Of a stretch of 64,000 nucleotides of DNA, positions 7,798 through 62,078 are shown piece after piece. Made by a program: the position numbers and the translations under genes. Source of the DNA: Okamejei kenojei (lineage: Eukaryota); contig CM069153.1 in assembly GCA_035221665.1 (NCBI GenBank), forward strand, positions 19,220,001-19,284,000. The letters are read 5' to 3'. The notes below the pieces were generated by a model. The model was not told the DNA's origin. It worked only from the letters and a program-made list of their open reading frames with translations, and searched no databases. Positions within the stretch are counted from its first letter, which is position 1. Each line of letters begins with the position of its first letter.

Positions 7798-7892
7798 ATA
7801 TCTGAAGAAGGGTCTCGACTCGAAACGTCGCCTATCTCCTTCGCTCCTTAGATGCTGCTGCACCCGCTGAGTTTCTCCAGCATTTTGTGTAT
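7798..7892 (+). mobile_element. Short Penelope-derived hammerhead element
   Basis: TCTGAAGAAGGGTCTCGACTCGAAACGTCGCC...cccgctgagtttctccagcattttgtgt. Confidence 0.8.
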
Positions 7893-9164
7893 CCCATATT
7901 CAATGGCCGGTTTCGATGGGCTTAAGATACCTGCGGCTGTTACACGCATTTATCCGCACATTTGCTCGAATCCAACGTTAATCGTGTTTTCTTCAGTGGA
8001 GCTCAGAAGTCCTGGGGTTTTGTCCGCATGTCTTGAAGGTGGCAGAGGAGATGGGAAATTGAAAAAGTAGACATAGAGGAACATTGAATTTGGGATTTTA
8101 TAAATAAATGTGTGGAGAAACAAGGAAGTTATGTTGAATATTCATGAAATACTGGTTTAAACCCATCTTGAGAATCACGTGAGTGTGTACTACTTTTGAA
8201 AAAAGTCATCACAGAATCTACATGAATAAATTATTTTATAATATTCAATAAATGTGTTTATTATGTATCCTATCACACCACATTTCAAAGCCAATTGTTT
8301 CAATGGTTGAGACTGGTTTATTGAAGAGAACAGTTTAGCCTATTAATATAAAATAGGATTTATGAATGTTAAATGTGATTTTTATTCATAGTTTCTGCAA
8401 ACACTCCCTCCCATTTCAAATTGAATCCCATTCCTCAGCCATGAAAGCTGAATGAAGCAAACTTTTTTATGACATTTTATTTAAATTCTATCATATTTAT
8501 GTTTATTCTGACCTGTCCATTTCACATTGATCCTGTGTAAGTTCTTATTATGTTTAGATGAAGTATTAAGTGGAAGAGTAATACAGCATTCATGCCCGCA
8601 ACAGGAGTTTTTTAGGAGAATCTTTAAGGAGATTGTTCTGAGAAGCGTTTAATCCAATCTTTTTTTACATTTGGAACAGGCAATGTTGAATCTTGAAGGC
8701 TCTTTCAATTAAGTTTAATTAGGAATTGTGTTTTTGGTTAATTATTCTGGTCTTTTTTTTGCATTTTTGCTCTTAAGTTGATGTTTGTAGAAAATGTTAA
8801 CCACTTTAACACATTAATATGTCAATCAGATGTGTTGATCGGCATCATGAATGCAGAACAATAGAATGGAAAATAAAGATGACAGTCATAAATACAAGCT
8901 GCTGGAGTCTGAAGAAAGGTCCAGCCCAAAACATTGTCTGCTTGTTTTCCTCCACAGATGCTGTCTGAACTACTGAGTAACTCCAGTCATTTGTTTTGGG
9001 TTCAAGATTCCAGCAACAGCAGTCTCTTGTATCTGTAGGGGTTTTTTTAAGTTGCATCTTACTTGGTTCCCTTTGGGTGACAATTAAACATGTAGGACTC
9101 AGCCACTTATCCCAGTAACAGCAGTTCATATTGCCTTTGGTGCATACTACAGTGGTTTAGCAGA

Positions 9165-9580
9165 CTATAGAGGATGTTTGCCAGGACAAGAGGGCCTGAG
9201 CGAAAGGGAGAGGTTGAACTAGCTCGGAGCACAGTATAGAGGTATAAAATTATGAGAGCAATTGATCAGGTAAATGCGCAGAGTCTCTTGCTCAAAGTAG
9301 GAGAATCAAGAACCAGAGGACACGTTTAAGGTGAGGGAGGAGGGAAGGAGATTTAATAAGAATCTGAGGGGTAACTTTTTCATGCAAAAGGTGGTAGGTG
9401 TGTGGAATGAGCTGCCAGGTGAGGTAGTTGAGGCAGGTACTATTGCAACATTTAATAAACCTTTAGATAGGTTTAGAGGGATCTGGGCCAAATGCAGGTA
9501 GGTGGGTCTAGTGTAGATGGGACATGTTGGCCGGTGTGGGCCGAAGGGTCTGTTTCCAAGCTGTAAGACTCTTAGACTCT
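9165..9580 (+). mobile_element. Older CR1 LINE 3' fragment
   Basis: Degenerate CR1 ORF2 C-terminus (SRTRGH, VGVWNELP-like) plus 3' tail ggccgaagggtctgtttcc. Confidence 0.8.
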
Positions 9581-9805
9581 ATTGGAATTTGTCCCTAAAT
9601 ATGGATTGAGGATTGAAACTTGAAGGCCATCTTTTTTTTAAATGTCCTGTGAATGTATGAAATTGTTCACTTGTCTTATCTTTGTATGTAATCCAAAAAG
9701 TAATTTTCTCTCAATGTTATTATTCCTGATGTGGCAGATCTGTTCTTCTGTGAGGGTGAACCTCAAGCATCATGCTGCTATAACCTCAGATCTAACAGAC
9801 AAAGG

Positions 9806-10075
9806 GTAGCATGGTAGTGCATCGGTAGAGTTGCTGCCTTACAGTACCACAGCCCCGATTTTGATCCTGACTATGACGGAGTATGTTCATTCTCCCTGTG
9901 ACAGCGTTGGTTTTCTTCGGTTTCCTCCCACATTCCAAAGACATGCTGGTTTGTAGATTAACTGTGTAAACTGTCCCTAGTGTGTAGGACAGAACTAGTC
10001 AATGGGTGATCATTGGATGGTGGGAACCCGTTGGGCCGATGGGCCTATTTTCACACTGTATCTCTGAATTTAAAG
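9806..10075 (+). mobile_element. V-SINE (HE1-like)
   Basis: Same head, V-domain and tail as 13477-13790, more diverged. Confidence 0.8.
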
Positions 10076-11734
10076 GTGATCTTTCCAAAATGTTTAACTT
10101 CTAAGCTTTCCTTTCTCTACCCATTCAATCAGTGTTGCACATCAGACCCCAGACAAAAGAATAAATGCTCTCTCTGCCCCCAATCACGCCGATCATGCAG
10201 GCTCCCAGGAGCACTTTGCAATCGGTCAGCTTGGCTTTTTACCTGAAATTTCATTTTTGTTTATCATCCCATCAGCATTATCTTGGAGCATCACTAAAAA
10301 AAACCTTGAATTTTATTACTTTATCTAAATATCTGCTGATCATTCACACTTTAAATGTTCTGCTATCTGAAATCCAAACCTCACATAACAAATTTTAGGG
10401 GCAAAAGCTTTTGAAAAAGAAAACTTCAAAAGCACTCCAATGCTGTAAAGAGCTTACAGGTCTAAAAAAAAAATCTATTTTTAAGTGAATTGAAATGTAA
10501 TTTGATTCCTCTTTACTGTGTTAAAGTTAATAATCCCTCTGCTGTGATAAAGCATAAGTGGCTGCCCTGATCATGGGACAATTGTGTAGCCAACCTTCAT
10601 GTGTTTAAAGTGGTTGCCATCCTCATTTGACAGGCTACTGCAACTCCATCATGTTCCTGGTTAGATACGGGATGATGGATAGGAAGTAACGCCTGGCTCT
10701 GCTGCAGAACTTGTTCATGCTATCCAATTATGAAGCAACAACACCTGCCCCCAAGAACCCTTTGTAAAAGATACTGTCATTAATATTTACCTCGGGGAGC
10801 TCCATAGACCTTTTTTGGTGAAATAAGCCCACATTCCTTAAAAAAAAATGTCAATAAGTGAAAGTTGTTTTTAACAATTATATAAATAGTTTATCGAGTA
10901 AAGAATGAAAATAGTGCTGGAGTTTGCACAATAGATTTTGAACATTGCCTGAAGGCAGGTTTAGAATTCCTGAAGTGTTCCTTGAGATTCAAACCGATAA
11001 TTTTTAGATAATGTCACATTTTGATATTTTGAGGCAATATTGGATTTTCCTTCCTTTTGTGTGAAATATTAATTTGTTGATGATGTAATGGAATGATAAT
11101 AAATCAACCTTGTTTATGTCCACATGCTGGAGCAATGGTACAATCATAAATCACTGAAAAAAATATATATATTATCTCATAAGAGACATAAGATTGTGCA
11201 GTGGAGCATGACCACCTGACTGATTGGACCTCCGTCATTGGACGAAGCCTTTGTCAACACCATCTGGTAGCTAGAATGCAATGACCAACCCTCATTAAAT
11301 AAAATTAACACACATCCATCTTCTGCTCCTCAGAACTGGAAGAAGGATTCCGACCCGAAACATCACCTATCCATTCCCTCCACAGATGCTGCTTGACCCT
11401 CTGAGTGATACACGCTACTTATGCTATCTTTTTTTGCATTCATGTGTTGTAAAATCCATCATTCAGAAAAGTAATAACGGTATATCAACTCGCAAACTGC
11501 ATCTCTGCTGCAAAACAGATCAGAGTCTCTTTGAGCTGCAGATGCAAAACTGGAATGAATCCCTGGCACCCATAGGTTTTGCACATCTGCAAATTAAGCA
11601 GAAATTGTGGACATCAGCTATCAGAATTGAGGAAGGGCTGACCAGCAGATGATCTGGCTCCTCCCACCGACTTTCATGGAACATGCAGCCCATTTACAGT
11701 ATAGTGCTGGTAATGCACTAGTAATTCAGCAGAC

Positions 11735-11918
11735 ATGTGGAGCTGCAGATGCTGGAGCCTTGAGCAAAAGACAAAGTGCTGGAAAAACTCAGTTGTTCTG
11801 GCAGTATCAGCGGAAGGAATGGACGGGCGACGTTTCAGGTTGGGATCCTTCTTTGGTCTGAAGAAGGATCCCGAGCCGAAACATTACCTGTTCATTCCCT
11901 CCACAGATGCTGCCTGAC
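11735..11918. mobile_element. Palindromic Penelope-derived element
   Basis: ...gacgtttcaggttgggatccttctt-tggt-ctgaagaaggatcccgagccgaaac...; a further single copy lies at about 11335-11430. Confidence 0.75.
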
Positions 11919-15805: not shown

Positions 15806-15901
15806 GGTTACACAAAAAGCTGGAGAAACTCAGCGGGTGCAGCAGCATCTAAGGTGCGAAGGAGATAGGCGACGTTTCGGGTCGAGACCCTTCTTCGTTA
15901 A
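15806..15901 (-). mobile_element. Short Penelope-derived hammerhead element
   Basis: Reverse complement of GAAGAAGGGTCTCGACCCGAAACGTCGCC. 15-bp TSD CAGATTTGAGTGGAG at 15791-15805 and 15902-15916. Confidence 0.85.
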
Positions 15902-18769: not shown

Positions 18770-19397
18770 GTTTAATTATTGTCACTGCACCAAGGTACAG
18801 TGAAGAGCTTTTGCTTTTGCATACTATCCAGTCAAAGAAAGACGATCCATGAATACAATCAAGGCCCCACAGCGCACAGATAAAGAATAAAGGGTACACT
18901 GAAGATAGACATAAAATTCTGGAGTAACTCAGCGGGTCAGGCAGCATCTCTGGAGAAAAGGAACAGGTGACATTTCGGGTCAAGATCCTCGATCAGACTG
19001 AGTTACTCCAGCATTTTGTGTTTATCTCCAGTGTAAGCTAGCATGTGCATTTCCCTCTTACACATAAAGGATACATAATTTAGTGCAAAATATAGCATTT
19101 AGTGCAAAATATAGCATTGAGGTCCGATATAGTCAGAATAAAGATTATTCAAAGGTCTCCATTGAGATAGATGAGAGGTCAGCATTGTACTCCAGCTGTG
19201 AGAGGCCTGTTCAATTGCCTGATAACAGCTGGGAAGAACTTCTGAATTTACCTGATGGGAGAGGGGAGAAGGAGGGAGTGATCGGGGTGAGACTGGTCTT
19301 TGATTATGCTGGTGGCCTTGCTGAGGCAGCATGAAGTGTAGATGGAGTCATTGGAAAGGAGGCTGATCTGCATGATAGTCCACAACTCTCTGCAATG
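18770..19397 (-). mobile_element. Rex1/Babar-type LINE 3' fragment interrupted by a Penelope-derived element (18899-19063)
   Basis: Minus-strand remnants resemble the Rex1 C-terminus (LQRVV, IYTS.CL, SIIKDQSHP, FPAVIRQLN). The insert has a 12-bp TSD, ATAAAGGGTACA / ATAAAGGATACA. Confidence 0.7.
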
Positions 19398-19645
19398 TAG
19401 ATGAACTTCTGGGATCAACTAGATTTGAGAAGGATTCTCCACAGTCCCTCTGGGTTGACAGAGGCAAAGGATTCTGTAAGCTTGAAAAAGATCATGTATG
19501 GCAGCTGATCCCTCCTCCTGCATTAAAAAAAAATGCACTTCCCAATCCTGTTTGTCGTCATGTCGGAGTGAGGAGAGAGCTGGTAAAGGCCTTCTCAAAT
19601 GGATTTTCTACCCAACATTGCACAACAGTTTCCACCCTACAGATG

Positions 19646-20040
19646 GTAGACAAAAATGCTGGAGAAACTCAGCGGGTGGGGCAGCATCTATAGGAATAGG
19701 TGACGTTTCGGGTCAAGACCCTTCTTCAGACTGATGGGGGGGGGGGCGAAGAAAAACGGAAGAAGCGGAGACAGTAGGGTGTGGGAGAGCTGGGAAGGGG
19801 AGGGGAAGGAGGAAGAGGGCAAGGAGGAAGAGGGCAAGGACTACCTGAAATTGGAGGTCAATGTTCATACCGCTGGGGTGTAAACTACCCAAGCGAAATA
19901 TGAGGTGCTGCTCCTCCAATTTGCAGTGGGACTCACTCTGGCCATGGAGGAGGCCCAGGACAGAAAGGTCGGATTCGGAATGGGAGGGGGAGTTGACGTG
20001 CTGAGCCACCGGGAGATCAGGTTGGTTAATGCGAACTGTG
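19646..20040 (-). mobile_element. Penelope-like element 3' fragment: GIY-YIG endonuclease C-terminus followed by a hammerhead-like pLTR motif
   Basis: ORF 19713-20009 reads VAQHVNSPSHSESDLSVLGLLH..SESHCKLEEQHLIFRLGSLHPSGMNID, matching the typical PLE GIY-YIG end (H..........E...I..L....P.GMN). It runs into CTGAAGAAGGGTCTTGACCCGAAACGTC. Confidence 0.88.
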
Positions 20041-20334
20041 CAGAGGTGTTGTTTACAACTTCCAATGCTTGCTCAAAGGCCCATGTGAAATAAATTTGTG
20101 TTTGAATTTCTGTCCCCCACTGGAGAACAACTCCATGTCGGCTTCGATATTACTTTGTAAGGCCCAAATCAATGTTTAGGCTGCTGTTAGTGGATTGGGC
20201 ACAAATCTGGACACAGTATATAACTGATATAACTGCACATAGCATGCCCTTGGCTCCTACCCACTTTTTTTGCGTCTGTAATATGATTAATATCTTGCTT
20301 TTGTAAAATGAATTTTTAAGGAAATTAAAACACT

Positions 20335-20474: not shown

Positions 20475-20939
20475 TGACTAATAAGGCAGAATTAACCTGA
20501 ATCAAAAAGTTTTAAAAATATATTCAGTATTCACTTTTAAGTACTCTTTTTAATTCAGTATTTGTTTCACCTGGTTTTAAGAAGATGTTATGCATTGTTA
20601 ATGGCAAAACAATGTGCACTCTGCGCATTGTAATGCGTAAAAGAATAATCAGAGTTGATTTTGCCATACTTCAGAAGGGCTTCAACCTAGAAAAGAGAAA
20701 ATGTTTTGTATAAGATATTCTTAAAGGGGAAAAAAACAGTGCTGGAGTAACGGTGGGTTAGGCAGCATCTGTGGTGAACTCAGATGCTGAGTTACTCCAG
20801 CACTACTTTTTTTTTGTAAACCAGCACTCGCAGTTTTTTTGCTTCTCTATATTCTTAACGGAATTCAATAATGTGGGGCAAGAAAGTTTTAATTCCTTAA
20901 TGTTTCAAACCTAAGACATCTCCCTTTCTCTTTGTTTAG

Positions 20940-21364: not shown

Positions 21365-22139
21365 TGTTCTTTTTTTTAAAAGAAAACTTCAGAAGGTAGC
21401 TACAGTTATTTCTGTGCCATTTACCATAGTCCCATAAAGTGGGACAGTTTAATTTCTGTTCCTCGACATTTTACGGTTTATTATTGCTGTATGTGATATA
21501 TGCATTATGCAAACAAACTTCACTTTTCATAGGAATAGGTTCAGGCTTTTCACCCCTCAGGCATGCCTCGCTTTACCTTTCAGTTGTAATTTGGTCTCAA
21601 TTCTTTTTCGCTGCCATAGCTCCATAGTCCGTCAAACCTGTATAGCTTAAAAAATAGGGGTATACACAGGTCATATGGTCCCTCGTCATCTGCTCTAACA
21701 TTCAGTAAGTTCATGGTTTGAACAGACCAGAACTACACTATACTGCTCATCTCAATGCTTGACTTCCTAACTAGCAGAAGTCTATTGATCTCGGTCTTAA
21801 AGGCTCCAGATATCCCGATATTCACAGCCTTGTGGGAAAGAGGTTTCCAGATATCCACTAGTTGTATGGGAATAAATGTTTCGCAATCCCCTTCCATAAT
21901 CGCATAATTCTTTTGTTCTTCATTTGCCCATTCATTTAAATCACTTGACTATCTATATCTACCCTAACAAATTGTTTATGACTCTTTAAATCCCTTGATC
22001 AAGATTACACCTTGAATTACTGTGCTCAGAGGAATATAAGCAAAGTTTATGCTACTGTCTTCAAAATTTAACAACTAGCAGGTTCCACATCTCCCTCATT
22101 GTGTCAATAAGGTTATTTTGTGATTTCCATGAATGTAAA

Positions 22140-22266
22140 AGAAGGGTCTCGACCCGAAATGTCACCTATTCCTTCTCTCCAGAGATGCTGCCTGTCCCGC
22201 TGAGTTACTCCAGCTTTTTGTGTCTATCTTCGGTTCAAAGCAACAACTACAGTTCCTTCTTACACA
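22140..22266 (+). mobile_element. Penelope-derived short element in the presumptive COX10 3' UTR (CTGA half-core missing)
   Basis: gaagggtctcgacccgaaatgtcacc...gttccttcttacaca. Confidence 0.8.
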
Positions 22267-23436
22267 CAACGTCCTTTAGTATACTGTTATGGCTGTGGAT
22301 GCCTTAAATGCACAATACATGCACAAGGACCGAACAGATTAATGTATCACTAAGTGCTTTTGAACACCAGGGAATGTTCTGAAGTGCTGGCCAGAATTTC
22401 AGGAAAGATCATTGGACCACAATTTGCATTATCGTGAAATTAGTTATAAAATATGTCATTCAGTGTGTTCTTCAGAGGAAACTAAAAGAAATTCTCAATT
22501 ATTGTGACACTTTGTTTAATTGCAAATTGCAGGTATCTGCCGTTAATACTTGAGGATTTACAACCAAGTTTACATTTCTCTTCCAACTATAAATGTGTGG
22601 TTAGCACTGACATATGTTCAGAAGTACTCAGACAGTTTATTTTGCGACGTTAAACTATTTTAAATTAATGAGTTTGAACTGTTTCAAGGTTTTATGCCTG
22701 AATTGCATTCTTCCTGCGTAAGTTCAATTGAACACAGGTCATTCAGCAATTGATATTGTTGACCATGTCCATTGCAATTGATATTGTTGACCATGTCCAT
22801 TGAAATTGATGGTTGAAAATCGTTCAGATCTCATATTGGGAATTACGTTATGAAACTATGTAAAAAGATTAGCATTTAAATACATTTAAACTGCATTTAA
22901 TGCCACAGTGTTGATACTTTGATATCAAAATTAGGAGATGGTGTGATTCTTCAAATTCATACCACATGGGATAGCAGACTTGTAACTACCATCCTTTCAC
23001 CCCAACAAAGCTCAGAGATTACTTCTGTAGTTTCAAGGTGACAATGTATAAATAGAATAACCATATTTTTAGCAACAGTAATGCAGTTGTAAAATCCAAA
23101 GTGTTTCATATCTATGTACCTGGTTGCTGTAGAAATGACAAGTGTGGTCAGGATGTGAAGTAATCCTCCAGTAATTAATCACTATCATTATGATGATTTA
23201 AAAGAGTGGAATCAGAACCTTAAGCAAATAAAGTCTTGTGAATGTTTGTAATAAATGAGTATAACTGATCAATGTGAAATTAGTCACTTTCTTTTTGTTT
23301 GAAGGCTCGAGAATTCTGTTGTATGGTGACAGTTTGCAACGTGAATATGCAATGCAGACTGTTGTTCGAATGCTGGGCCCTGTGGAGTAGTTTTTAATTG
23401 AAATGGTACAAATGTGTTTAGATTCTATTGTGCCTT

Positions 23437-26959: not shown

Positions 26960-27174
26960 TCCACATCTACCCTCTTGGGTTGATGTACTATCAACCAAGA
27001 CACTGATCAACAGAAGGCATTAGAATTCACCCTTTTGACTTACCAGTAAGCTATCCCCCGTGTTAACATTTCTGAAAATAACGACAGCTTTATTGCCTCT
27101 GGAAGATTGCAGTTTGCAAATTAGCTCGGCCTACCTACATTGCAACAGTGATCAGATGTACACAGACCTTATAT

Positions 27175-27390
27175 TACAGAAAGTGCTGGAGTAACTCAGT
27201 AAGTCAGGCAGCATCTCTGGAAAACATGGATAGATGACATTTCCGGTCGGGATGCTTCTTGAGACTGAAGAAGGGTCCTCAACCCAAGATGTCACATATC
27301 CATGTTCTCCAGGGATGCTGCCTGACCCACTGTGTTACTCCAGCACTTAGTACCTTGTTTTATAAACCAGCATCTACATTTCGTTGTTTC
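27175..27390. mobile_element. Palindromic Penelope-derived element
   Basis: agtgctggagtaac...ttcttgagactgaagaaggg...gttactccagcact inverted arms. Confidence 0.75.
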
Positions 27391-29936: not shown

Positions 29937-30244
29937 CAATACCTCCAGATTCAGGGACAGTTCCCCCCCAGTTGTTATCAGGCAACTAAACCATCCTCTC
30001 ATCAACTAGAGAGCGGTCCTGAGCTGCTATCTACCTCATTGGAGACCCTCGGACTATCTTTAATCGAAATTTACTGGAATTCTTCTTGCGCTAAACGTTA
30101 TTCCCTTTATCTTGCATCTGCACACTATATGGCCGGCTTGATTGTAATCACGTATAGTCTTTCCGCTGACTGGATAGCACGCATCCAAAATAATTTCACT
30201 GTATATTAGTACACGTGACAATAAATTAAACTAAAATAACGAAC
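29937..30244 (+). mobile_element. Rex1/Babar-type LINE 3' end inserted into a Penelope-derived element
   Basis: TSRFRDS..PVVIRQLN, 3' UTR ending gtgacaataaattaaactaa, and 8-bp TSD GCACTTTG at 29929-29936 and 30245-30252. Confidence 0.75.
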
Positions 30245-31419
30245 GCACTTTGTGTTTTACTCAAGATTCCAGAAGTTGCCATTTATGTGGGTCAATTTAG
30301 TTGAAGCGCGCTCTACATTGGAAGGTTGGGTTGTTTGAAACAGTAACATTAACGTTTTGGAAGGGATCAACCCGAGGTTTACCAATTAGCCAGGAGAATA
30401 GCTGTCCACATTTGATTTGATAGTTATCGTTAAGTAAAGCAAGCCCGACCGCTCCAAGTGGAAAGCTCATCCTTATCTTTTCTGGGACATGTTTTTTTTC
30501 TCACTGAATAAAATAGCTAACAACAATTATGGATAATAAAGATACATTTCTTTCTGCTTATAATCTTTCAACCAACCAGTTGGTCGTTTGGTCGATGTTT
30601 TTTAGTGGAGAGTAAAACATCTCTACTCGTTAAAAACTACGTTCCACATTCGAAGTTTTTTTTACAATCTTTTTGTTACTCTCAATAATTGTGTACAAAT
30701 GGTTTACCCCAGAACAGAATGCAAACGATTGACTAGGTTTGCAAAATACATTCATATGGTGTTGTTATATTTCGAAACGGGCACTTGTGCGTGTAGTGCG
30801 ATCAGCTCACAGGGTGGGGGTATAATTTTTAAATTCCATCAGTCGCCAATAGTTTTTGAAGCCGGCGATAGATGTCTATAAAATACGACACAACCGGGTT
30901 GTCATCTTTCAACTAACGTCTCCTTTAGCAATTATATGGTGACTAGTTTACTGTCGCCACCGGATAGTTCCAGGGATTTACTTTATTTACGAAACGCTCT
31001 CTCAGAAATCCGTGCCTTAATAAATATTCGCTAATGTGAGTATTTATTCCCATTGCTCAGTCTAGTCTGACATTAGCGCAGTGCCGAGGAAGAGATGTAG
31101 GGTCGGGATTCCATCTCCGAGATTCATGTGTAGGAAGGAACTGCACATGCTAGTTTAAACCAAAGATAGACACAAAGAGCTGGAGTAACTCGGCGGGACA
31201 GGCAGCATCTCTGGAGAAAAGGAAGAGGTGACGTTTCAGGTGGAGACCCTTCTTCCAGAGCTGCCGTCTGACCCGCTGAGATACTCCAGGTTCTGAGATT
31301 CCTTACCCCGGACTGGTGAGAATCCCCAGTCTTCATTCAGAAAAGAGAGCGGGAGATTTCTGTGCATGGAAGGGAATCAAAGGATTTGGCGGCGGTGCTG
31401 TAAGTTGAAGATCACATAA

Positions 31420-33028: not shown

Positions 33029-33121
33029 CTGAAGAAGGGTCTCGACCCGAAACGGTACCCATTCCTTCTCTCCGGAGATGCTGCCTGTCCCGCTGAGTTA
33101 CTCCAGCTTTTTGTGTCTATC
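33029..33121 (+). mobile_element. Short Penelope-derived hammerhead element
   Basis: Starts at CTGAAGAAGGGTCTCGACCCGAAAC. 13-bp TSD TTGTATTTGAAGT at 33016-33028 and 33122-33134. Confidence 0.85.
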
Positions 33122-45155: not shown

Positions 45156-48100
45156 TAAAGATCCACAACAATGCAAATTGCTGAATTAGTAATTGGCAGC
45201 AGGGGAGAATAGTGGGGAATGGAGTGGCTAAGAGGTGCCACAGACTTGATGGACCAAATGGGATCTTAATATCCTCAGGAAATCTACAAATTGACGATTT
45301 GTGCGACTGGGAATTGACGGCTGGAAGGTTTCTCTTTATTTCTCAAACTAGCCCTGTTTGAGAGGTTGTCCAGTTTCCTGTGGTGATCTCCCCAGCTGTG
45401 CGTGAGGCGGAGGCAGGGACAGGAGGGTTTACTCGGACCATCCTGAGGTCTTTGCTGAGCATTCAGTAACATGAAACTAACCCCCCCCCCCCCCCCACCA
45501 CCTCCATGAGTAACTTTTTAGAAAATAACAGCAGTAAGTTTTAGAAAGATTGAATAACTCCAGTTAAATTTGAATTAATATCTGTAACCAGAAACACTGA
45601 CTGGTCTAAACCCAGTGGGAAATGAACGGTTGCAGAAATTTATATCCCCGGAAAGGGTTTTAACCCGTGCTTGCATTGGCGTTTGAAAGAAGAAATGATT
45701 TGTCCTCAACAGTCCCTCTCAAAGAGTTTTAGGATAGCTGAGCATTTGCAAACATAAACTTCTGCTTTGGAAAACATTGGCTTGACTTGGTAATTGTAAT
45801 TGGTTGCCAACCATTATTTTCAGTAATGTGCCCGAAGGAAGTGCAGATACTGGTTTACACAGAAGATAGACACAAAATGTTGGAGTAACTCAGCGGGTCA
45901 GGCAGCATCTCTGGAGTGAAGGAATGGGTGACACTTCAGTTCGAAGATCTTTCTTCAGTTTGATTCAACACTTATTTTTTTGCCGGGCCATGTTTTGTGT
46001 GTCTGAAACCAAATAAAGATTATTGTTCAAACCCTTTGAAACCTAAAAGTATGAGTGTCTCTGGTTAGAATTATAATCTCATTGTAGTTTAATAGTGTGA
46101 GAAGACAATGATGAGACTCAGTCTTGCAGAAGGGTCTCGACCAAAACGTCACCCATTCCTTCTCTCTTCTCTTGCCTGTCCCGCTGAGTTATTTTGTGTC
46201 TATCTACATTCCCTTCTAGAATGGGATGGACAGTTTGCGACGGAGAATGTAAGAGCAGCGAGGTAGGGTGTTGGGGCCACCAATGGTAAGGCACAGATTA
46301 CCAATGTAATGCCATTTGACTTACGGAGCAGGAAAGGGGTGTGGTGTTTGGGACAGAGAGGGGGAGGCTGCGGAGAGTCGGGCATGGTGAAGGCATGTTA
46401 GTAGCATCAGCTGCCATCACCGATTGGAATCCAGTGGGTAAATATCCTCGCTTGTAGGGTTACATAGAAATTAATGGCATTCTTATTGCTGATGAGCCGC
46501 AGACCAGTATACTCTTGAGGGACTTATGCCTTGCCAATAATAGATGTATGTGACTTCAATGTCGATATACGTACACCATACAGGCCATTGGTGGAGAATG
46601 GACATTACTTGGGCTTGGCTCCTGATCCCCTTGTGATGAACAGTACTGTGGGAGAAGGAAAGGAAAGACAATGTATTTCACTTTTCAGTAAGGTCCAGTG
46701 TGCAGAATAAAATCTAACTTCATTATAAAAAGAAAAGCCCAGTTTTGTTCTGCTGTAACCTAATAAGGATTCTTGTTCAGATCCTAGGAAACCAGGATGT
46801 ATGAATGCGTCTGGTTAGAATATTAATCTCATTGTAGTTTAATAGTGTGAAAGGACAACAGTGTGACTCACCGGTACCTTAATTACCTAGAATAATTTGT
46901 GTGTTAAATTTCAAGTTCCTTATCAGAACTGTACTGTGTGCCAACTTTGGAGACATGGAAACTTGTTTTATTGAAGCGAATATCCTTATATCCTGGGGCT
47001 TCAATAGGCATTGCAGATATATTTACATGTGACTATATACATTTAAAATAATAGCATAAATTAAGAGATAATAGTATAATTCTATGCAATAGGCATTTTC
47101 TTTCAATTCGTATATCGTGCATTGTTTAAATTGTATTATCGAAACCATTGGAGCAGATCTCATTAAAGGGAACATAAAAGCAACACACTCTATTGTAGCA
47201 TAGTTGCTCCAAATGTGGCAGATCCACTGTGTTGCTGAAACTTAGGATCCAATTATATACTTAATGAATAGTTTGTATTTGGGGACCATCACTTGTGCTA
47301 GAGTAAGGACTCTGCGTAACCTTTGTCCAGCAGATTACAGAAGGCATCTTTACCGAAAACATTGTAATTGCCAAACAACATAAGTGGATGGGCGATGGGT
47401 AAACGACCTGCCTGCTTGTTGATTTTTTCCTTTGGTTCGTTTATTGACACAATGTCGTTTGCACACAAGCTCTTTTGCACGACAAATATTGATTCATTTA
47501 CCCACTGCTGTTTTCCATTCACGTGAATTCTTTTGGACTGCATTTTAAAAATTAATTGCAGCATTTATCATTGAATAAGGCAAGATGTGGGGAACCTTCC
47601 ATTGCAGTCTGATGAGGTTTGTCGCATGTTGGAACAAAGTTGAGCTGCCGTTTTGAATTTTTATCTTAACATTTGAGTGATTACATAATCTCTGAGATTA
47701 CGTAAAAATGATCGTGAAAAGAACCCCAGATATTGCTGGTGTAATTAGTTGTATATAAAGTATCAGTACCAGGGTCTGCCTGTGTTTGCTTTACAAGAAT
47801 TGAGGTTTTGAAGTTATCATTAATTCGTCTGTCTGAAGCAATGTTCTGTGAGGAGGACAATAACCGACAGGACAATTTAAAACATCATAGATAAGAAGAG
47901 GACAAGCAGTTCAAGAATGTGAAATGGTTTTAATGAGATAGCATTATTATTAATTGTGGTGGGGCTATTAACAATAAAAGACTACATTCTTTCAATTGCA
48001 CAATCTTGCACATTTACTATTTTAATTTTTATTGCATTAATGTGAGAGAAAGACATCTCAACTGTACATTGCCTGCACTTTTCAATGGTTTTGTGGAAAG

Positions 48101-52195: not shown

Positions 52196-53315
52196 AGTTG
52201 TTCTTGTTTTAGAAAAAACAGAAAGATGATTTTATGGGTTTCTAATTTAAGTGTTGGATAGTTATTCTAATATGAAGCTCCTTACTGATGTTAATGAAAA
52301 AAATTGAAGAGGGACAATAAGGGCATAAGACGCAGCCAGCACCAAACTAGTTCCATCAATGATTAACTCTTAATGCACCAGTGACTCATCCATCCATCAA
52401 GAGGCACAAACCTGGCATAAATACTCCTTTAATTTTACCAGAAAATGTCAATGTTGACTATAAAGTTGTAACGGTGCTGACACCTTGAGGGGTTCTTCTC
52501 ATGAAGATTCTTTAGTGATAAACTAACTTTTGGGAAGATTGATGTTCACTCTGTAAAATATTGCTGTTGAGGTTTAAGCCATTTGCAATCCATGAGGATA
52601 ATTATTTCCCACTAATTTTATAGCAGCAATAGCTCTCAGATCCCTGGCTAATGTAAATGAATGGTTAATTCCTCCCCCCCCCCCCCCCCCCAAGGAATAC
52701 ATGGAGAACATTTTAATCAATCGCAGATGAGTAGCCTTTAAGTTATGTGGTTTTGCTCATAGGTATTGGTGGAAGAGTTACTTTATGATTTATTTACACT
52801 TACAGTACACTCATTACTGGGTGCCACACTCATTACTATTGAGCATGGAAAAAGTAGTCCGTGAACCAATTTCATCATGCTTTATTTCAATGTATCATGC
52901 ATGCTCTCCAAAATGGCTTCTAACAAATGGCAACCGTTGTGCATTATGTAAATGGCAACATTCTGCTTTAATTCGTTGCTTTGCCATGGCGATGCCAACC
53001 AAGCAATGGAATTGTTGCAGAGAATAGTCTTAGTTATTCTTGTTAAAACAACAGAACATGAATATAAAATCTCCCTCGGGCTCATCCAGCCTCTTCAGGG
53101 TTCAAACCTCTCACAGTCTTGCAATATTTATTTAACCAGTTACCAAGCATGAGACACAACAGCAGAGTCATTCCAGGTTGTAACTGGATCGGTCTACATG
53201 TGTGGCAGATTTTGCATGGGCCCAGTGTTGTCCAACACTCCTGTTTCATGTGGAGATTGAAATGCCCAGGGTATGAAACCGATGGGAAGTAAAGGGAGAA
53301 ATAAAGAACAGCTGT

Positions 53316-53524
53316 GTAGGAAAGAACTACAAGAGGCTGGTTTAAACCGAAGATAAACACAAAATGCTGGAGTAACTCAGCGGGACAGGCAGCATCTCTG
53401 CAGAGAAGGAATGGGTGATGTTTCGAGTCGAGACCCTTCTTCAGTCTGACCCAAAACTTCACCGATTCCTTCTCTCCAGAGATGCTGCCTGTCCCGCTGA
53501 GTTACTCCAGCTTTTTGTGTCTAT
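53316..53524. mobile_element. Palindromic (inverted dimer) Penelope-derived element
   Basis: A minus copy then a plus copy joined at the hammerhead core, with one 14-bp TSD TAAAGAACAGCTGT at 53302-53315 and 53525-53538. Confidence 0.85.
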
Positions 53525-53719: not shown

Positions 53720-54270
53720 GAGTTTAGTTTAGTTCAGAGATACAGCGTGGAAACAGACTCTTCAGCGCACCAAGTCAGCATCGACCAACGATCACCCATA
53801 CACTAGTACTATCCTACACACCAGGGGCTGAAGAAGGGTCTCTACCCAAAACATCACCTATTCCTTTTCTTCAGAGATGCTGCCTGATACGCTGTCTGTT
53901 TCTCCAGCTTTTTGTCATTTATCTCACAATTTACAGAAGTCAATTAACCTACAAACCTGCACGGCCTTGGGATGTACAGTGGCGCAGTGGTAGTGTTGCT
54001 GCCTTACAGCGCCAGAGACCCGAGTTTGATCCTGACTATCCGTGCTCTTTGTATGGAGTTTGTATTTCTCCCTTTGACTGCGTGGATTTTCTCCGGGTGT
54101 TCCGGTTTCCTCCCGCACTCCACGGACATGCAGGTCTGTAGGTTAATTGGCTTCTGTAAACAATCCCTAGTGTGCTGAACTAGTATAGAACTAGTGTACG
54201 GTTGAAGGCTGGTCGGTGTGGACTCCTGGACTGAAGGGCCTGTTTCCACACTGTATCTCTAAACTAAACA
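53720..54270. mobile_element. Composite: minus V-SINE half (with a Penelope-derived insert at 53827-53924) fused to a full plus V-SINE (about 53975-54270)
   Basis: tttagtttag tail at the left, ctaaactaaa tail at the right, and CTGAAGAAGGGTCTC core inside. Confidence 0.75.
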
Positions 54271-54844
54271 CGAGACTCACTACTCCTGACCGTCAGAGTA
54301 AGCACAGAAGGATGGGAGGTATAAGGTGCTTTCAAGACATGAAATGGATTAGAGTCTGAACTATGTGGATCTGGTCCAAATTGTGTATTCTCACAAAAGA
54401 TATCTACTAAAACAAAAGTACTTGCATGGAAGCATGCATGGGAAAAATGCACAGGAACCTGCATGGAGCTGTAAATGATGCGGCTAAACCTTGTATCCGG
54501 TTCCAGAATGGTGTCAGTTCTACTGTGCTGCACATGAACTAGAAATCCCTTTAGCTGAGTATCCTGTGCAAAAAAAACAAACTGCTGGACAAATTCAGCG
54601 AGTCAGGCAGCATCCATGGAGGGAAATGGACAGTCCACATTTCAGGTTGAAACCATTCCCGTGGACTGGCACAGTAGAGGGGTGACAGTTAGTATAAAAG
54701 GGTGAGGAGGTTGAGACAAGACATAGACAATGGGTGGATATAGCTGGGGTGGGACAAGTGTAGATGGGACATCTTGGTTAGCATGGGCTAGTTGGGCTAT
54801 TTCCATACTGTACGTCTCTAAAGCACGTATGTAGTACAGTAGAC

Positions 54845-55995: not shown

Positions 55996-56479
55996 CTAGT
56001 CCCTTGTTCGGACTCCGTGTTCTCCAGAGATGCTGCCCGACCAACTGAGTTACTTCAGCTGTTTTTTGCTCAAGATTCCAGCATCTGCAGTTCTTTGTGT
56101 CTAATATTCTTTTTGACTTTGGCCTACTTTTTAACCTAGTTTATGACCTATTCTCCTTGTATGAAGCTCCTTGCCGCATGGCACTCCTTGTTTGGGGGAT
56201 GGTGAGAGCAGAGACCTGTTTGCACAATGAGTGTCTCTGTCAGCTCATTTTGTACAGCACATGGTGTAATTTACAAGCAGGAGAGAGATCCAAAGTGGTT
56301 ATTTTCCTCCATGGTTCTCGTAGGAAGGTTACACAACTGCTGTGTTACCAGCTTGGGCAGGAATGAAAAACACTGCTGTGACATTCACCCTGACAATGTT
56401 TCAGCAAGTTCAAGTCTTGCCACAAAATATTGCAACGCTCATCATAATGAGGAAAGTGGAAGTTTGAATGATTGGAAGT

Positions 56480-56793: not shown

Positions 56794-57496
56794 GTAATCA
56801 ATTGTAGATTGTAATCAAGGCCTCATTAAAAACCTTTTGGAAAGGAGAACTGAGAAACTGATCTCCCTGCTCATATTAGCTGTCTCCCTGCTCATATTAG
56901 CTGTTATGGTCATTACACAATCAAGTTTTCTTTTCCAAACAAAGGTCTTCAGTAAATATTGAGATGCAATAAACTGCAGATGTTGGAGTCGAGCAAAACA
57001 CAATGTGCTGGAAGAAATCTGGAGGCCAGGCAGCATCTGTGGAGGGGATCGATAGATCCTTTGGAGTCTGAAGAAGGGTCCCAGCCTGAAAGGTTGCCTG
57101 TCCTTTCCCACCAGAGATGCTCCCTGATCTGCAGAGTTACAATTGCGCCTCGTGTTTTGTTTCTTCTATGAATATTGCTTGGTTTCCACGATTTGCCCAA
57201 AGGCTTTGGGAAAATGTCAGTGAACTGTGCATCTGGCAGAGGGAAATTCTTATCGGACTCTCTGAAATTGTAAGAAGCTACCATTTTCATTGACTTCATT
57301 AGAAATTTAGAAATAATTGACCTAGCTTTGCTAAGTCTTTTGTTGATGAATCACACGCTAGCAACCATTTCTAAGAACCGTCCAGTTAATCTGGTAATGA
57401 ATAGTTCACAGACAGCACCTCTGACTAATACAATGGTGCACATGGAGTGGTGGAGTGCAGGTTTGGAGCCGATATTTAACCACAATACTTAGCTCA

Positions 57497-58392: not shown

Positions 58393-58695
58393 TGTGGTAG
58401 CTTACAACGCAGCGGTATGAATATTGATTTCTCTAACTTTAAGTAACCTTTACTTTCCCTCTCCCTCCGTCCCTCCCTACCGTGGTTCTCTTACTAGTTT
58501 CACGGTCCTCCTGATTAATTTTACTGTTGGCAGCTGACGATGAGCCATTCTACATTTTCTTGAATAGCCTCTGCTTTGATCTGTCCTTTCAACACCTTGC
58601 GAAAGGGTCTTTGTACCTTTCCATATCTCAAGTTTCACTTTCCCCTGGCTCGCGGTCTGAAGAAGGGTCTCAAGCCAAAATGTCACCCATTCTTG
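58393..58695 (+). mobile_element. Second Penelope-like 3' fragment
   Basis: ggtagcttacaacgcagcggtatgaatattgatttctctaactttaagtaa = GSLQRSGMNIDFSNFK*, then a pyrimidine-rich UTR ending in GTCTGAAGAAGGGTCTCAAGCCAAAATGTCACC. Confidence 0.8.
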
Positions 58696-58957: not shown

Positions 58958-59527
58958 GGGTGGCACGGTAGTGCAGAGATAGAGTTGCTGCCTTACAGCA
59001 CCAGAGACCTGGCTTTGATATTGACTATGGGTGCTGTCTGTACAAATGTTGGACGTTCTTCCTGTGAGCGCATGGGTTTTCTCCAGGTGCTATGGTTTGT
59101 TCCCTCACTCCAAAGACATACAGGTTTGTAGGTTAATTGGATTTGGTAACAATTGTAAATTGTCCCTAGTGTGTAGGATAGTGCTAATATCGGTGGTTGG
59201 CATGGACTCGGTTTTGTTTTTTAGTTTAGTTTGGAGATACAGTGCGGAACAGGCCCTTCGGCCTACCGAGTCCACGCTGACCAGTGAACCCTGTGCACCG
59301 ACACTATCCTACACACAGTAGGGACAATTTACAATTTTACCAAAGCCAATTAACCTACAAACCTGTACGTCTTTGGAGTGTGGGAGGAAACCGGGAGCAC
59401 CCAGAGAAAACCCACGCAGGTCACGGGGAGAACGTACAAACTCCGTACTGACAGCACCTGTAGTTAGGATCGAACCCGGGTCTCTGGTGCAGTAAGGCAG
59501 CAACTCTACTGCTGCGCCACTGTGCCA
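58958..59527. mobile_element. Tail-to-tail pair of V-SINEs (plus 58958-59210, minus 59215-59527)
   Basis: Two family copies in opposite orientation, directly abutting. Confidence 0.85.
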
Positions 59528-61088
59528 TGTTGAAGCCAGCAGCAGGCTGATTGTCGTGTTTGACTCACTAAAAGCTCCACGTTGGAGGGTATTTCCTCAT
59601 TTGGAAAAGTTAGCTCCTGCTTATTGAGTGCTTGAGTACCTTACTGAGTTTTTTTAATGGTTTTAAGGAAACTAAAATTAATGATCTGTATCATGGTTTT
59701 TTTTTTTTTTAAATATGATATTTGATGTTTTTTGATGTTAAAGGTATAACAAAGTAGGTTGATTGTAAAACTACAGCCAAAACCTTCTATAAAGCAGATT
59801 AAAGCATTAATCGGAGAAAGAGCCTTTCCTTTAGTCTATCTTTTCCCTTAAATGGTGCATCTGTTTGAGGTGGATCTTGAGACTCCCTTTTGATGTTTAG
59901 TTGATTTAGACACATCTTCAAAGCATTGGTGTATCTTTTTGAAATTGTGAATGGAGCTTGTCACTTATTAAAGCATTGGATGAGGCCCTTTAACCTAACA
60001 ATTGTTGATGGAACCAGTTATACCAATCCGGAATAAAGGAGGCCAGTGCAGTTAGCAACTTGCTTCCTGTGCTGAGCCTTTCAGCTTTGTCAACTCGAGT
60101 TGAAAAGTAAATGAAGAAACAAAAGAGTTGTAAGCAGAACGAACTAATGCGAAAGAATATCTATTTGCCGACAAAATCTTTGAATGACCACAAATCATAT
60201 TGATGTAGTTTCCCTTTCTATCTGGAGGGGAATCAGACTCCATAGTCTTTTGTTGCCATCAAACCATTGAATCACAAACAACCAGAATTACTGACTGTCC
60301 ACTTTTTCAAGAGTCAAGAGTGTTTAATTGTCATTTGTACCGGGAATGGAACCACAAAGTTCTTACCTTTTCACCATATCTAACGTACAGAAATGGGCAC
60401 TCACTTTATTTATTTCAGAGTGCAAATATCTAAACAATTCTAGTGTTTAAAACAAACCCAATGTATATTTAAAGTCGGGATGAAATCTTTTAAAATGAGC
60501 ACACTTGTGGCAAGTAAAGAACATGGATGTCACAGTGATGAGGTCAATGACTGGACGTTCTATTCTGTGCATAAACTTATCTACTCTGTGATGTTGAACT
60601 GAGCGTTGCACAAATCTATTTTTGGGTTTATTTTTGACTTGTGGGGGAACAATGTAAAATGTTTATTCCTTCTCAGAATGTACAGTGCTTGTGGATATTA
60701 ATCTAAAGCACTGTGATTACATTAAAACTTGCTACAAAAAGCATGTGGATGAATATCCCTGTATTAATCTGTCTTGGTCATTGTTTTAAGCTGCCACTAT
60801 TCAGAATTAAAATTGTTAAATCTCAACAAAATAAACATATTGTACTCGTGTCACCCTCCCTCAAGGCACCCTCAGCCAGTGGCCAAGTTATTTCTGCCAA
60901 CTCAGGCATAATTCAGGTGTACTGATACTAAACTACCAGTTATTGAAATGTTCCTGACCTTGTCGGGTCGCAGGGCACAGTACAGTTTAGATACACTTTA
61001 GTTTATTGTCACATGTACTGAGGTACAGTGAACAGCCTTTGTTGCATGTCAGCGGAAAGGCAACACATGATTACATTCAAGCCATTTA

Positions 61089-61415
61089 TGGGCCTGTTCC
61101 ATTTAAGCAATTTTTTTTTTTTAGGCAACTAAAAAATGTCGCCACATGTTCGCCGGTGGTCGGCGGGAGTAGTCTCCTCAGTCGTGCTAAAATTCGTAGC
61201 GTCTTTCTGGCCACCACTAAACTTTCAACATCTTGAAATTTTTTCGGCGACAGTCGGTTTGACGCCAATGAGCGTAGCTTGACTTCTCCTGACGTAGGTG
61301 CGGTTGTATATTGTTGCCAGGATAACGTAGGTTGTCGCTGGTTTTTCAGCGACCTGCTACGACTATGACAGTCGCCGGCAGTTGTCTAAAAAATCGCCCA
61401 AGTGGGACAGGCCCA
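61089..61415. mobile_element. PIF/Harbinger-type MITE with the same TIR family as 2419-3163, inserted into a Rex1/Babar tail
   Basis: TTA|TGGGCCTGTTCCATTTAAGC...GCCCAAGTGGGACAGGCCCA|TTA, a perfect TTA TSD. Confidence 0.8.
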
Positions 61416-61789
61416 TTACAGTGTATAGATACATGATAAGGGAATACATTTTAGTGCAAGGTAAAATCAGTAAAGTCAGATCAAGGAGGTATTTAGATAA
61501 AAACTGTTGAAATCTTGCATGTTGAAAGGCCTGACTAAAATTGATTTGGGTGACTTTGAACCTTAATTATATCTCTAAGTTTGTGCAAGAGTAAAATCCC
61601 TTTGCATTAGTGAAAACTGCTTACCACAGCAGATTACAAGTGCTCAGGGTTTATTTTAATTTTTTTCCTATGGTACGTTAGAAACCAGGCAAGATAGACA
61701 CAAAAAGCTGGAGTAACTCAGCGGGTCAGGCAGAAAAGGAATAGGTGACCCTTCTTCCGCCGATGTACTCCAGCGTTTTGTGTCAATCT

Positions 61790-62078
61790 TCAGTATGGAA
61801 ACAAACCCTTCAGCCAACCAGGTCCACACCGACTATTAATCACCCGTTCGCACACTAGTTCTACAGGCACTACACCCTAGGATTAATTTTACAACTAATA
61901 ATAGACCTACAAACCCACACATCTTTGGGATGTGGGATGAAACTGCAGAGTCCAGAGGAAACCCACGCAGTCACAGGGAGAATGAGCAAGTTCCACGCAG
62001 ACAGCACTCGCGGTCACGATCGAACCTGGCTCTCTGACGCTGGGAGACAGCGGCTCTCCCAACTGCACCACGGTGCCA
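61790..62078 (-). mobile_element. V-SINE (HE1-like)
   Basis: Reverse complement of the family consensus, immediately left of the Tc1. Confidence 0.75.

Follow-up and report, generated by a model that had tools for sequence, protein, structure and literature searches.

Results

Short repeats and endonuclease ends in the skate window

The window, a stretch of 64 kb of skate DNA that was analysed as a whole, carries a family of short repeats that are the ribozyme-bearing terminal pieces (pLTR) of a Penelope-like element (PLE). A profile built with nhmmer from 7 window copies gave 32 matches at E<=0.01, which fall into 24 loci (about one per 2.7 kb) and cover ~2.97 kb or 4.6% of the window; 10 shuffled windows gave no match. 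Every position at which the original prediction had placed one of its roughly 20 short copies holds one. Coding sequence is absent from 22 of the 24 loci, and at two (19.7 and 58.4 kb) the unit is joined to the C-terminus of a PLE GIY-YIG endonuclease, which bears out the earlier assignment to a PLE pLTR end. The features are as follows, with + values counted from the hammerhead core.

7800..7897, plus strand: single stub, intact core at 7802-7829, without tail
8888..9035: head-to-head insertion, short inverted arm and tailed plus-strand arm; older subfamily
11330..11430, plus strand: single decayed stub
11730..11918: head-to-head pair, axis 11857 (base before core), tail on left arm, 8-bp duplication 11722/11931
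15807..15897, minus strand: single stub, start +3, 15-bp target duplication 15791/15902
18896..19065: head-to-head pair, full left arm, CTGA microhomology, right arm from +65, tail right
19642..19734, minus strand: endonuclease-joined hammerhead, intact core 19729-19702, with ~65 nt 3' extension
19731..19844, minus strand: GT...CAG spacer, 114 nt, 85% pyrimidine, putative pLTR intron
19845..20051, minus strand: PLE GIY-YIG endonuclease, C-terminal ~69 codons, 5'-truncated, small indel near stop
20727..20845: head-to-head pair without hammerhead, arms from +45 and +64, tail right, 10-bp duplication 20715/20849
22135..22268, plus strand: single tailed stub
24793..24855, plus strand: 5' part of split stub, perfect core 24795-24822; the split copy as a whole is bounded by a 14-bp duplication (24777/26960)
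24856..26884, plus strand: RT-bearing LINE fragment inside the 24.8-kb stub, presumably CR1-like, 12-bp duplication (Pfam RVT_1, E 1e-28)
26885..26957, plus strand: 3' part and tail of the split 24.8-kb stub
27176..27390: head-to-head pair, axis 27264, tail on right arm
29847..29965, plus strand: decayed stub, possibly with short inverted arm
31127..31293: head-to-head pair, tail left, right arm from about +36
33026..33121, plus strand: single stub without tail, 13-bp target duplication 33016/33122, cleavage triplet mutated
33722..33748, minus strand: weak 27-nt fragment of 3' part (nhmmer E 0.0015)
45827..45963, minus strand: tailed stub, possibly with short inverted arm
46118..46206, plus strand: stub with internal deletions
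53313..53524: best-preserved head-to-head pair, axis 53445, tail on left arm only, 14-bp duplication 53302/53525
53826..53924, plus strand: single stub inside another repeat
54566..54662, minus strand: strongly decayed stub
56020..56100, plus strand: tailed stub from about +41, without hammerhead
56962..57160: decayed head-to-head pair, tail on left arm
58396..58443, plus strand: second PLE endonuclease, last ~15 codons (tblastn 75-80% over 15-16 aa, E 0.02)
58443..58655, plus strand: GT-starting spacer, 213 nt, 68% pyrimidine; AG before the hammerhead decayed in this copy
58655..58694, plus strand: decayed hammerhead, 3'-truncated
61690..61800: head-to-head pair with internal deletions, one removing the 3' half of the hammerhead

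The endonuclease end at 19.85 kb is 79% and 73% identical to the Leucoraja proteins P0001 and P0002 and is found by tblastn with P0060, a protein holding both RT and EN, at E 2e-12. The second endonuclease end, at 58.4 kb, is joined to the unit as had been claimed and aligns at the DNA level with that at 19.85 kb, yet only ~15 codons of it remain (tblastn E 0.02). The hammerhead was said to follow the endonuclease directly; at both loci a spacer intervenes, of 114 nt (19844-19731) and 213 nt (58443-58655). As in D. virilis Penelope, where an intron reaches up to helix I, the skate spacer is intron-like with its end at helix I, and at 19.7 kb it takes the position of that intron relative to helix I; the end of the 58.4-kb spacer matches the loose-end consensus of public contigs at 19734.

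Pfam returned no match for the window endonuclease piece itself; in its homologs GIY-YIG is matched at E 1e-4 to 8e-3, values near or below the cut-off, a PLE-type RT occurs in two of them, and no PLE RT lies within the window. A CxxxxCxxC linker precedes the GIY-YIG motifs in 19 of 148 short homologs, and a CX2-5CxxC linker is present in the close homolog P0002 (73%), in P0019 and in P0060, in a region outside the window fragment; Nematis shares the motif. Judged by this Zn-finger-like linker in the homologs rather than by a tree, the relatives of the 19.85-kb endonuclease appear Neptune-like, of the Neptune or Nematis type.

The hammerhead motif

The 28-nt hammerhead core quoted in the original prediction has a single exact occurrence in the window (24795-24822). 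The bare core pattern, found 12 times, is at chance level (shuffle mean 4, maximum 12), whereas the core together with ACGT and the triplet, found 3 times against a shuffle mean of 0.03, is above it. An Rfam scan of the window gave no hammerhead match at E<=1 and only 3 weak miRNA-hairpin matches. The majority sequence of the stub alignment (A1) fits the CUGANGA, GAAA and UH core with an extra base before helix II and a palindromic helix III, and in that form the minimal type I hammerhead of PLE type holds; the core is complete in 3 of 22 arms, and in 12 of the 22 the CG of the palindrome reads TG or CA.

The helices are short. Helix I, expected to have several base pairs in a minimal type I hammerhead, has 2 bp at best, is paired in 61% of alignment cells and has a probability of ~0 in predicted monomer folds. 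The "5-bp helix II" of the original prediction would need a 2-nt loop; the monomer forms only 4 bp, the fifth pair having probability 0 in all 7 predicted monomer folds. An active dimer fold is calculated at ~-6 kcal/mol against ~-23 for the best cofold, in a model that leaves out tertiary contacts and protein help.

The covariation check on helix II that accompanied the original prediction returned the shuffled level (0.181 compared with 0.183; 266 of 500 shuffles as high), although the test is weak because the copies are neutrally decayed paralogs, and identity in the core does not clearly exceed that downstream (0.88 vs 0.84, p 0.12). The 24791 copy, the best copy of the original prediction, is not intact, being split at about +60 by an RT-bearing LINE of ~2 kb, its remainder lying at 26885-26957, and the 20.7-kb locus, listed as a ribozyme copy, lacks the hammerhead. 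None of the window arms starts or ends at the cleavage site. With neutral core decay, covariation at the control level and a core identity excess at p 0.12, the sequences indicate that the minimal hammerhead is a passenger in the stubs.

Ends, pairs, tails and target duplications

What stands out is where the stubs start: for most of them this is one point, give or take a few bases, immediately before the hammerhead motif, 19 of the 24 loci starting at -4..+6 of the core. As geometric truncation would, at best, place <=4% of starts in this interval (p ~4e-22, the interval having been picked after seeing the data), plain truncation is no explanation for the sharp 5' boundary. The 3' ends fall at two positions, about +95 and +132.

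Nine of the 24 loci are head-to-head pairs, which had been overlooked, as had the fact that a tail of ~37 nt is optional; judged by eye, 8 of the 9 pairs have it on a single arm. Three pairs are symmetrical exactly about the base preceding the core (axes at 11857, 27264 and 53445). A search for the axis hit the expected centre in no more than 3 of these 9 pairs, arms being deleted or short in the rest, and the inverted pairs vary in junction, arm length and side of the tail. The quasi-palindrome TCAG-W-CTGA is native at 19735-19726. No tandem array of the unit occurs in the window.

Target duplications of 10-15 bp abut the short unit at five loci. Of 24 intervals searched automatically, three had duplications (15, 13 and 13 bp), and of 2000 random intervals 11 had one of >=10 bp; closer inspection extended one duplication to 14 bp and added one of 10 bp and one of 14 bp. 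Most of the 24 loci have no clear target duplication.

In a weakly supported tree of 18 arms an older subfamily (8.9, 11.3, 11.8, 29.9, 54.6 and 57.1 kb) has no endonuclease-linked member within the window, and the short copies at 7.8 and 15.8 kb cluster with the endonuclease-linked 19.7-kb copy (support 0.85).

Public sequencing contigs

Contig depths summed over a public DNA run (X1), which do not measure copy number, come to 1.2-2.7 million for the endonuclease, ~7 million for the best hammerhead and 3' bins and ~20 for unique flank; endonuclease-bearing relatives are abundant and reach about one third of the summed depth of the hammerhead segment. The commonest start by public contigs is the A of an initiator-like TCAGTCT. 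At 19732, 1108 contigs break into heterogeneous, AT-rich flank, and since more contigs at the 19.7-kb reference (1544) continue into the pyrimidine-rich spacer, long copies are common too. Among 12 listed of 391 loose ends are breaks at 53444 in 208 and 1252 contigs, with AGT as the last shared letters, these breakpoints being forced by mismatches in the reference copy used. Opposite-strand joints of the unit are seen, as are, in small number, head-to-tail joints whose units lie 2-9 letters apart.

Discussion

The layout of the stubs is the published layout of Penelope-like insertions. In EN+ PLEs an inverted truncated copy and a one-sided tail are standard (PMC8557442, PMC3846280, PMC2377424), and the skate stubs share four marks with them, namely the pLTR, an adjoining inverted 5'-truncated copy, an optional one-sided tail of 30-40 bp and a target duplication, besides the link to a PLE-type C-terminal GIY-YIG endonuclease. 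Unlike the published insertions, most skate inserts are without any ORF, the whole insertion measuring 90-215 bp. The short repeats are likely to be stub copies of the RNA of the parent element and not a separate mini-element. We propose that they are probably short pLTR insertions of Neptune-like Penelope elements, made as run-off copies of uncut parent RNA in which the hammerhead is a passenger.

The GIY-YIG endonuclease would cut both target strands 10-15 bp apart, and the RT would prime inside the RNA at one of two sites, ~95 or ~132 nt past the core, the interval between them being the optional tail. As the copies cross the GUC site without a scar, the template would not have been cleaved by the hammerhead. 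The cDNA would stop after ~100-140 nt by run-off at an RNA 5' end formed by the A of TCAGTCT, three bases before the core. We lean towards this RNA start as the cause of the stop; stalling just upstream, where a pyrimidine tract and a splice-acceptor-like site lie, is a less probable, though possible, cause. D. virilis Penelope starts 46 nt upstream of an intron ending at helix I and, as the skate spacer resembles that intron, by analogy the RNA start would lie further upstream than the TCAGTCT start needs. Where both nicks prime, the two cDNA ends would anneal via the AG-W-CT quasi-palindrome or other short microhomology into a head-to-head insertion, and inserted copies would then decay.

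Several steps have a counterpart in vitro. In the passages of Frangieh et al. 2024 (PMC11167929) on the Anolis element PAc, the tail is delimited by two internal RT starts lying ~100-150 nt beyond the hammerhead, resembling the skate stubs, cutting and extension take place on both strands, RNA that has not been processed serves as the main template and the hammerhead cleaves only with protein. PAc is a Poseidon element, not Neptune, and so of a different clade from the skate parent, and these passages describe neither fixed 5' ends nor short head-to-head products.

Solo stubs are already known as a kind, in the form of PLE ends with minimal hammerheads that are dispersed through many animal genomes. 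In the passages of Cervera and De la Pena 2014 (PMC4209133) drawn on here, such min-HHRs are dispersed in thousands, singly and in opposite-strand pairs, they are attributed to truncated PLEs, and weak activity is expected of those in metazoan PLE pLTRs. The extra base before helix II, the G10.1-C11.1 pair, the loopless palindromic helix III and a short helix I are common to both; the skate stubs differ in a helix I of only 2 bp, a helix II of 4 bp and a density of ~1 per 2.7 kb. Their host is a cartilaginous fish, and the main-text passages and one supplement of that paper name no shark or skate; nor do the passages describe a sharp 5' boundary.

The original prediction saw in the repeats a separately amplifying retrozyme/SINE-like family. 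On such a model short master copies derived from the pLTR would be transcribed and mobilised by PLE protein as a self-propagating non-autonomous family, which we consider unlikely. Fixed ends, the density of loci, the lack of coding sequence at most of them and the few head-to-tail joints in public contigs speak for it; rotifer pLTRs suffice in cis for trans-mobilisation, non-autonomous PLEs occur in Chlamydomonas, and vertebrate retrozymes have been proposed as pLTR-derived. Against it, the window holds no tandem array and no copy bounded by the cleavage site, and junctions, arm lengths and tail side vary among pairs. Neither strand of any of the 18 arms tested has a Pol III B box, an antisense match to the A box occurs in 6 of them and is not common to the subfamilies, and the window has no tRNA genes. 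Moreover, the 7.8- and 15.8-kb copies group with an endonuclease-linked copy, and the endonuclease end is itself very abundant in public contigs. With the core intact in so few arms, no covariation, no start at the cut site, no tandem array and the best copy split by a LINE, the retrozyme/SINE interpretation is unsupported.

Non-LTR retrozymes (Cervera and De la Pena 2020, PMC7229834; Li et al. 2026, bioRxiv 10.64898/2026.07.22.740005), reported in one chondrichthyan, are, like the stubs, non-coding, related to pLTRs, furnished with a type I hammerhead and found together with PLEs. They are head-to-tail tandem units with complete hammerheads in succession, whereas the skate copies are single or head-to-head and mostly broken, and no run of at least two consecutive head-to-tail units with a complete hammerhead is present in the window. 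A SINE-like minority may exist among the stubs. In its fullest form, that the skate Neptune pLTR is a self-propagating Penelope-dependent SINE, with its own initiator three bases before the hammerhead, parent-free transcription, reinsertion by PLE protein as monomers or twin-primed hairpins to a density of about one per 3 kb and rare head-to-tail dimers with active ribozyme, we hold the idea to be improbable. If short copies do self-amplify, they would constitute a vertebrate SINE that depends on PLEs; a literature search, with Repbase and Dfam outside it, found none.

The same parent could have been copied with the opposite polarity, the 3' end of an antisense template folding back at TCAG-W-CTGA and self-priming to give head-to-head inserts with the intron kept, a scheme that Arkhipova et al. 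2013 put forward for the inverted junctions of PLEs. The quasi-palindrome is native and lies at the axis of 3 pairs, but its fold-back stem is only ~3 bp, the predicted symmetric arms contrast with unequal arms and a tail that is one-sided in nearly all pairs, and another PLE has been shown in vitro to prime inside its sense RNA at the boundaries of the tail (passages of PMC11167929), all of which makes this route very unlikely. Still more improbable is that recombination or deletion reduced longer insertions to solo pLTRs, in the manner of solo LTRs: rotifer solo pLTRs without target duplications were so explained, and most skate loci have no clear duplication, but duplications abut the short unit at five loci, and direct-repeat recombination would leave a complete pLTR, endonuclease end and spacer included, and would yield no head-to-head arms.

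The use of the stubs is mechanistic. The routes by which PLEs come by pLTRs, tails and inverted ends have yet to be settled, and up to 2024 in vitro work on full-length PLE proteins was limited to a single one, according to the passages of PMC11167929. A very large natural set of inserts that share one 5' boundary and two 3' boundaries, with target duplications and annealed head-to-head junctions, yields predictions at the level of the base: a template uncut by its ribozyme, two priming sites and priming on both strands. Short of a SINE, the stubs would preserve strong-stop cDNA of PLEs on the scale of a genome, placing the start of the RNA, the two RT starts and the intron of a vertebrate pLTR to the base. 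The pair at 53313..53524 is predicted to fold as one long hairpin.

Short hammerhead-bearing units as probable stubs of Penelope-like RNA

Based on our data we propose that the short hammerhead-bearing units of the window are probably stubs of the RNA of a Penelope-like element (PLE). The abundant short-repeat family of the original prediction was borne out: a profile built from 7 window copies gave 32 matches in the window and 0 in 10 shuffles, and the matches collapse to 24 loci, 7 match pairs being the two arms of one insertion each, those at 24.8 and 26.9 kb a single copy split by a LINE, and one locus a weak 27-nt fragment. Pairwise identity among 18 arms ranged from 55 to 97% (median 70%), and an exact 30-base pattern sought in metagenome contigs had 0 matches. 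The family is real, abundant and belongs to a known kind of element.

The hammerhead had been said to follow a GIY-YIG endonuclease C-terminus directly at two loci; the linkage held at both, near 19.7 and 58.6 kb, whereas the adjacency did not, as spacers of 114 and 213 nt lie between. At the first, 69 codons (20051-19845, minus strand) precede the unit and are 79% and 73% identical to two Leucoraja proteins (P0001 and P0002), the closest named proteins to the endonuclease piece being those of Leucoraja erinacea, which marks the host as skate-like; at the second, ~15 codons are left (58396-58443). The piece is matched by 152 cluster representatives at E<=0.001. One homolog (P0060) carries both RT and GIY-YIG domains, and in three (P0002, P0019, P0060) a CxxxxCxxC linker stands ahead of the GIY-YIG motifs, a mark of Neptune and Nematis elements according to excerpts of PMC8557442.

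Spacers from stop codon to hammerhead
19844-19731, minus strand: 114 nt, GT...CAG, 85% pyrimidine
58443-58655, plus strand: 213 nt, GT start, acceptor decayed

The skate spacer is placed as the intron of the D. virilis Penelope pLTR is, which in partial texts begins 46 nt past the RNA start (PMC2377424) and extends as far as the 5' end of helix I (PMC4209133). By this analogy the GT-started, pyrimidine-rich spacers are a putative vertebrate PLE intron. When upstream flanks were searched for traces of a spliced template, 0 of 11 single-copy flanks exceeded the 99% null level in their match to either the spacer ends or the end of the endonuclease, and 3 of the 11 sat at the 95% level. Public-contig joints skipping 118-126 nt over the spacer were not counted as splicing, the letters between them being unknown. 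The PLE endonuclease C-terminus also occurs fused into unrelated predicted proteins (P0001, P0002, P0005, P0021), with LINE RT, DUF4518, GPCR and NYAP as partners; these fusions are probably gene-model artefacts or exonisation of an abundant repeat.

A sharp 5' boundary and head-to-head insertions

With the C of CUGA as +1 and the cleavage site at +28, the unit starts at -4 to +6 in 19 of 24 loci; two others extend into spacer and endonuclease, three start at +41 or later, and none of the 24 starts at +29 as a cleavage product would. A geometric truncation model places at most 4% of ends in the -4 to +6 interval (p ~4e-22, the interval having been picked after seeing the data). Public sequencing runs agree with this boundary, as assembled contigs (X6 and X8 probably DNA, X19 a guess) that are not informative on transcription, cleavage or splicing. 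In run X1, 1108 contigs on the 19.7-kb copy leave it at 19732 (the A at -3) and continue into heterogeneous flank, and 1544 leave it at 19734 for pyrimidine-rich sequence resembling the 58.6-kb spacer end (among the matches listed, 24 of 1301). On the 53.4-kb arm, where breakpoints are set by mismatches in the reference copy, 208 contigs of X6 and 1252 of X11, which has another organism code, break at the core with AGT in common and then AT-rich flank; the 3' breaks fall at the +95 end (422 and 1960 contigs) or at the tail end (239 and 999), in each case among the matches listed, 12 of 391.

The A at -3 we take to be the +1 of an initiator-like TCAGTCT; a splice-defined 5' end would fall two bases deeper inside the unit. 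The bases around the A also make up a quasi-palindrome, and an automatic search placed the symmetry axis at position -1 in three pairs (11857, 27264 and 53445); the search missed the other six pairs, whose arms are short or deleted. Head-to-head pairs were found at nine loci (8.9, 11.8, 19.0, 20.7, 27.2, 31.2, 53.4, 57.0 and 61.7 kb), the second arm of the 19.0-kb pair being joined at +65 via a CTGA repeat, and by eye a short inverted arm is possible at three more (29.9, 45.9 and 46.1 kb). The 3' ends lie near +95 or +132, and the 37-nt extension is carried by a single arm in 8 of the 9 pairs (by eye; 61.7 kb is ambiguous). Exact direct repeats flank six copies; repeats of at least 10 bp flanked 11 of 2000 random intervals.

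Exact flanking direct repeats
15.8 kb: 15 bp
53.4 kb: 14 bp
split 24.8/26.9 kb copy: 14 bp
33.0 kb: 13 bp
20.7 kb: 10 bp
11.8 kb: 8 bp

In excerpts of PMC8557442 and PMC3846280, the published PLE layout comprises an inverted truncated copy, a one-sided tail of 30-40 bp and a target duplication; in those of PMC11167929, RT starts at two internal sites that bound the tail of the Anolis PLE, cutting and extension take place on both strands of the target, and the main template is unprocessed RNA. Two cDNAs started from opposite nicks and annealed by their 3' ends would yield the observed head-to-head junctions. Literature listings, with subscription journals, Repbase and Dfam outside the scope, yielded no direct report of a chondrichthyan PLE hammerhead or of PLE twin priming.

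Alternative origins of the short units

That the units are a self-propagating short element, retrozyme- or SINE-like as originally predicted, is unlikely. The units have fixed ends, coding sequence is lacking at 22 of 24 loci, the older subfamily (8.9, 11.3, 11.8, 29.9, 54.6 and 57.1 kb) has no endonuclease-linked copy in the window, public contigs contain a few head-to-tail joints in which 2-9 letters separate the units, and trans-mobilisation of pLTRs is documented in excerpts of PMC8557442 and PMC3846280, all of which would suit such an element. However, retrozymes are defined by tandem units with consecutive complete hammerheads (partial texts of bioRxiv 10.64898/2026.07.22.740005 and PMC7229834), and none of the 23 TRF rows of the window is a tandem array of the unit; a Pol III B box is absent from the 18 arms tested, which speaks against a SINE. 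The endonuclease end is itself abundant in run X1, its summed depth lying within ~3-fold of that of the hammerhead, and therefore parents or long truncations are abundant; summed contig depth is no copy number, and the better-conserved hammerhead gathers more subfamilies. An antisense Pol III promoter in the unit was rejected. Antisense self-priming is very improbable as the source of the units, and recombination relics are scarcely to be expected.

One head-to-tail joint, in the runs on 19580-20120, had depths of 165 and 100 in two runs, and such joints may be true dimers located at other places in the genome. Same-strand joints on the 53.4-kb arm (for example 53 contigs, 53444 to 53357) were not counted as tandems, since the letters between are unknown and they could be two nearby copies.

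The hammerhead and its decay

The majority sequence has the predicted core, with an extra base before helix II and a loopless ACGT palindrome, as in the minimal hammerhead defined in excerpts of PMC4209133; the predicted 5-bp helix II is 4 bp in the monomer, and helix I is 2 bp. CUGANGA is kept in 12 of 22 arms, GAAA in 16 and ACGT in 8, all three being intact in 3 (7.8, 19.7 and 24.8 kb), and the palindrome exhibits CpG decay in 12. The proposed check for helix II covariation came out negative, its score equalling that of the shuffled control, and as a test for selection the core had no significant excess of conservation over the 3' part (p 0.12). An Rfam scan of the window returned no hammerhead family match and three weak miRNA matches below cut-off, which are hairpins; RNAalifold on the 3' part of 18 arms gave 4 pairs, no compensatory change and -1 kcal/mol.

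Helix II exceeded a probability of 0.1 in one of seven monomer folds. For the two best copies the active dimer has ~-6 kcal/mol vs ~-23 for the best cofold. Because these folding values come from a nearest-neighbour model and, in excerpts of PMC11167929, the hammerhead of the Anolis PLE cleaves in the presence of protein only, the motif may be active in the parent RNA. In the head-to-head insert at 53313-53524 a long hairpin (-134 kcal/mol, z -18) encloses the motif. Such head-to-head stubs are probably intronic and would form long RNA hairpins, possible substrates, on this model, for editing or small-RNA processing.

Other repeats and genes in the window

A nested insertion at 24793-26973 places an RT-bearing LINE fragment inside a stub with a perfect hammerhead core; the fragment comes with a 12-bp duplication and, at the LINE 3' end, an 8-mer repeat, and another piece of this LINE occurs in inverted orientation at 32072-32392 (90% over 321 nt). 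Besides this LINE piece and a DDE transposase, the window contains another abundant family, which has a tRNA-like head, presumably resembling an elasmobranch tRNA-derived SINE; ARAGORN called no tRNA in the window, this family included. A third family often adjoins it, and the 53.8-kb stub sits within a third-family copy.

Other features of the window
20.9-21.4 kb: UbiA-family gene exons
39.1-39.7 kb: sulfotransferase exons
7570-7750, 9803-9970, 13476-13665, 44890-45070, 53968-54160, 54835-54990, 56472-56665, 57532-57670, 58957-59150: tRNA-like-head family
near 14.8, 52.1, 59.5 and 61.9 kb, minus strand: tRNA-like-head family
14646-14710, 51875-51939, 53733-53797, 59229-59293, 61781-61845: third repeat family
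20335-20474 and 63774-63913: inverted repeat pair, 140 nt, 91% complementary, 43 kb apart
62085-63746: DDE transposase remnant (Pfam DDE_3), long terminal inverted repeats, 93-97%

The 140-nt inverted pair is a young repeat without class. The UbiA gene, sulfotransferase, LINE and transposase we take to be COX10, HS3ST3, CR1 and Tc1, the transposase remnant being Tc1-like.
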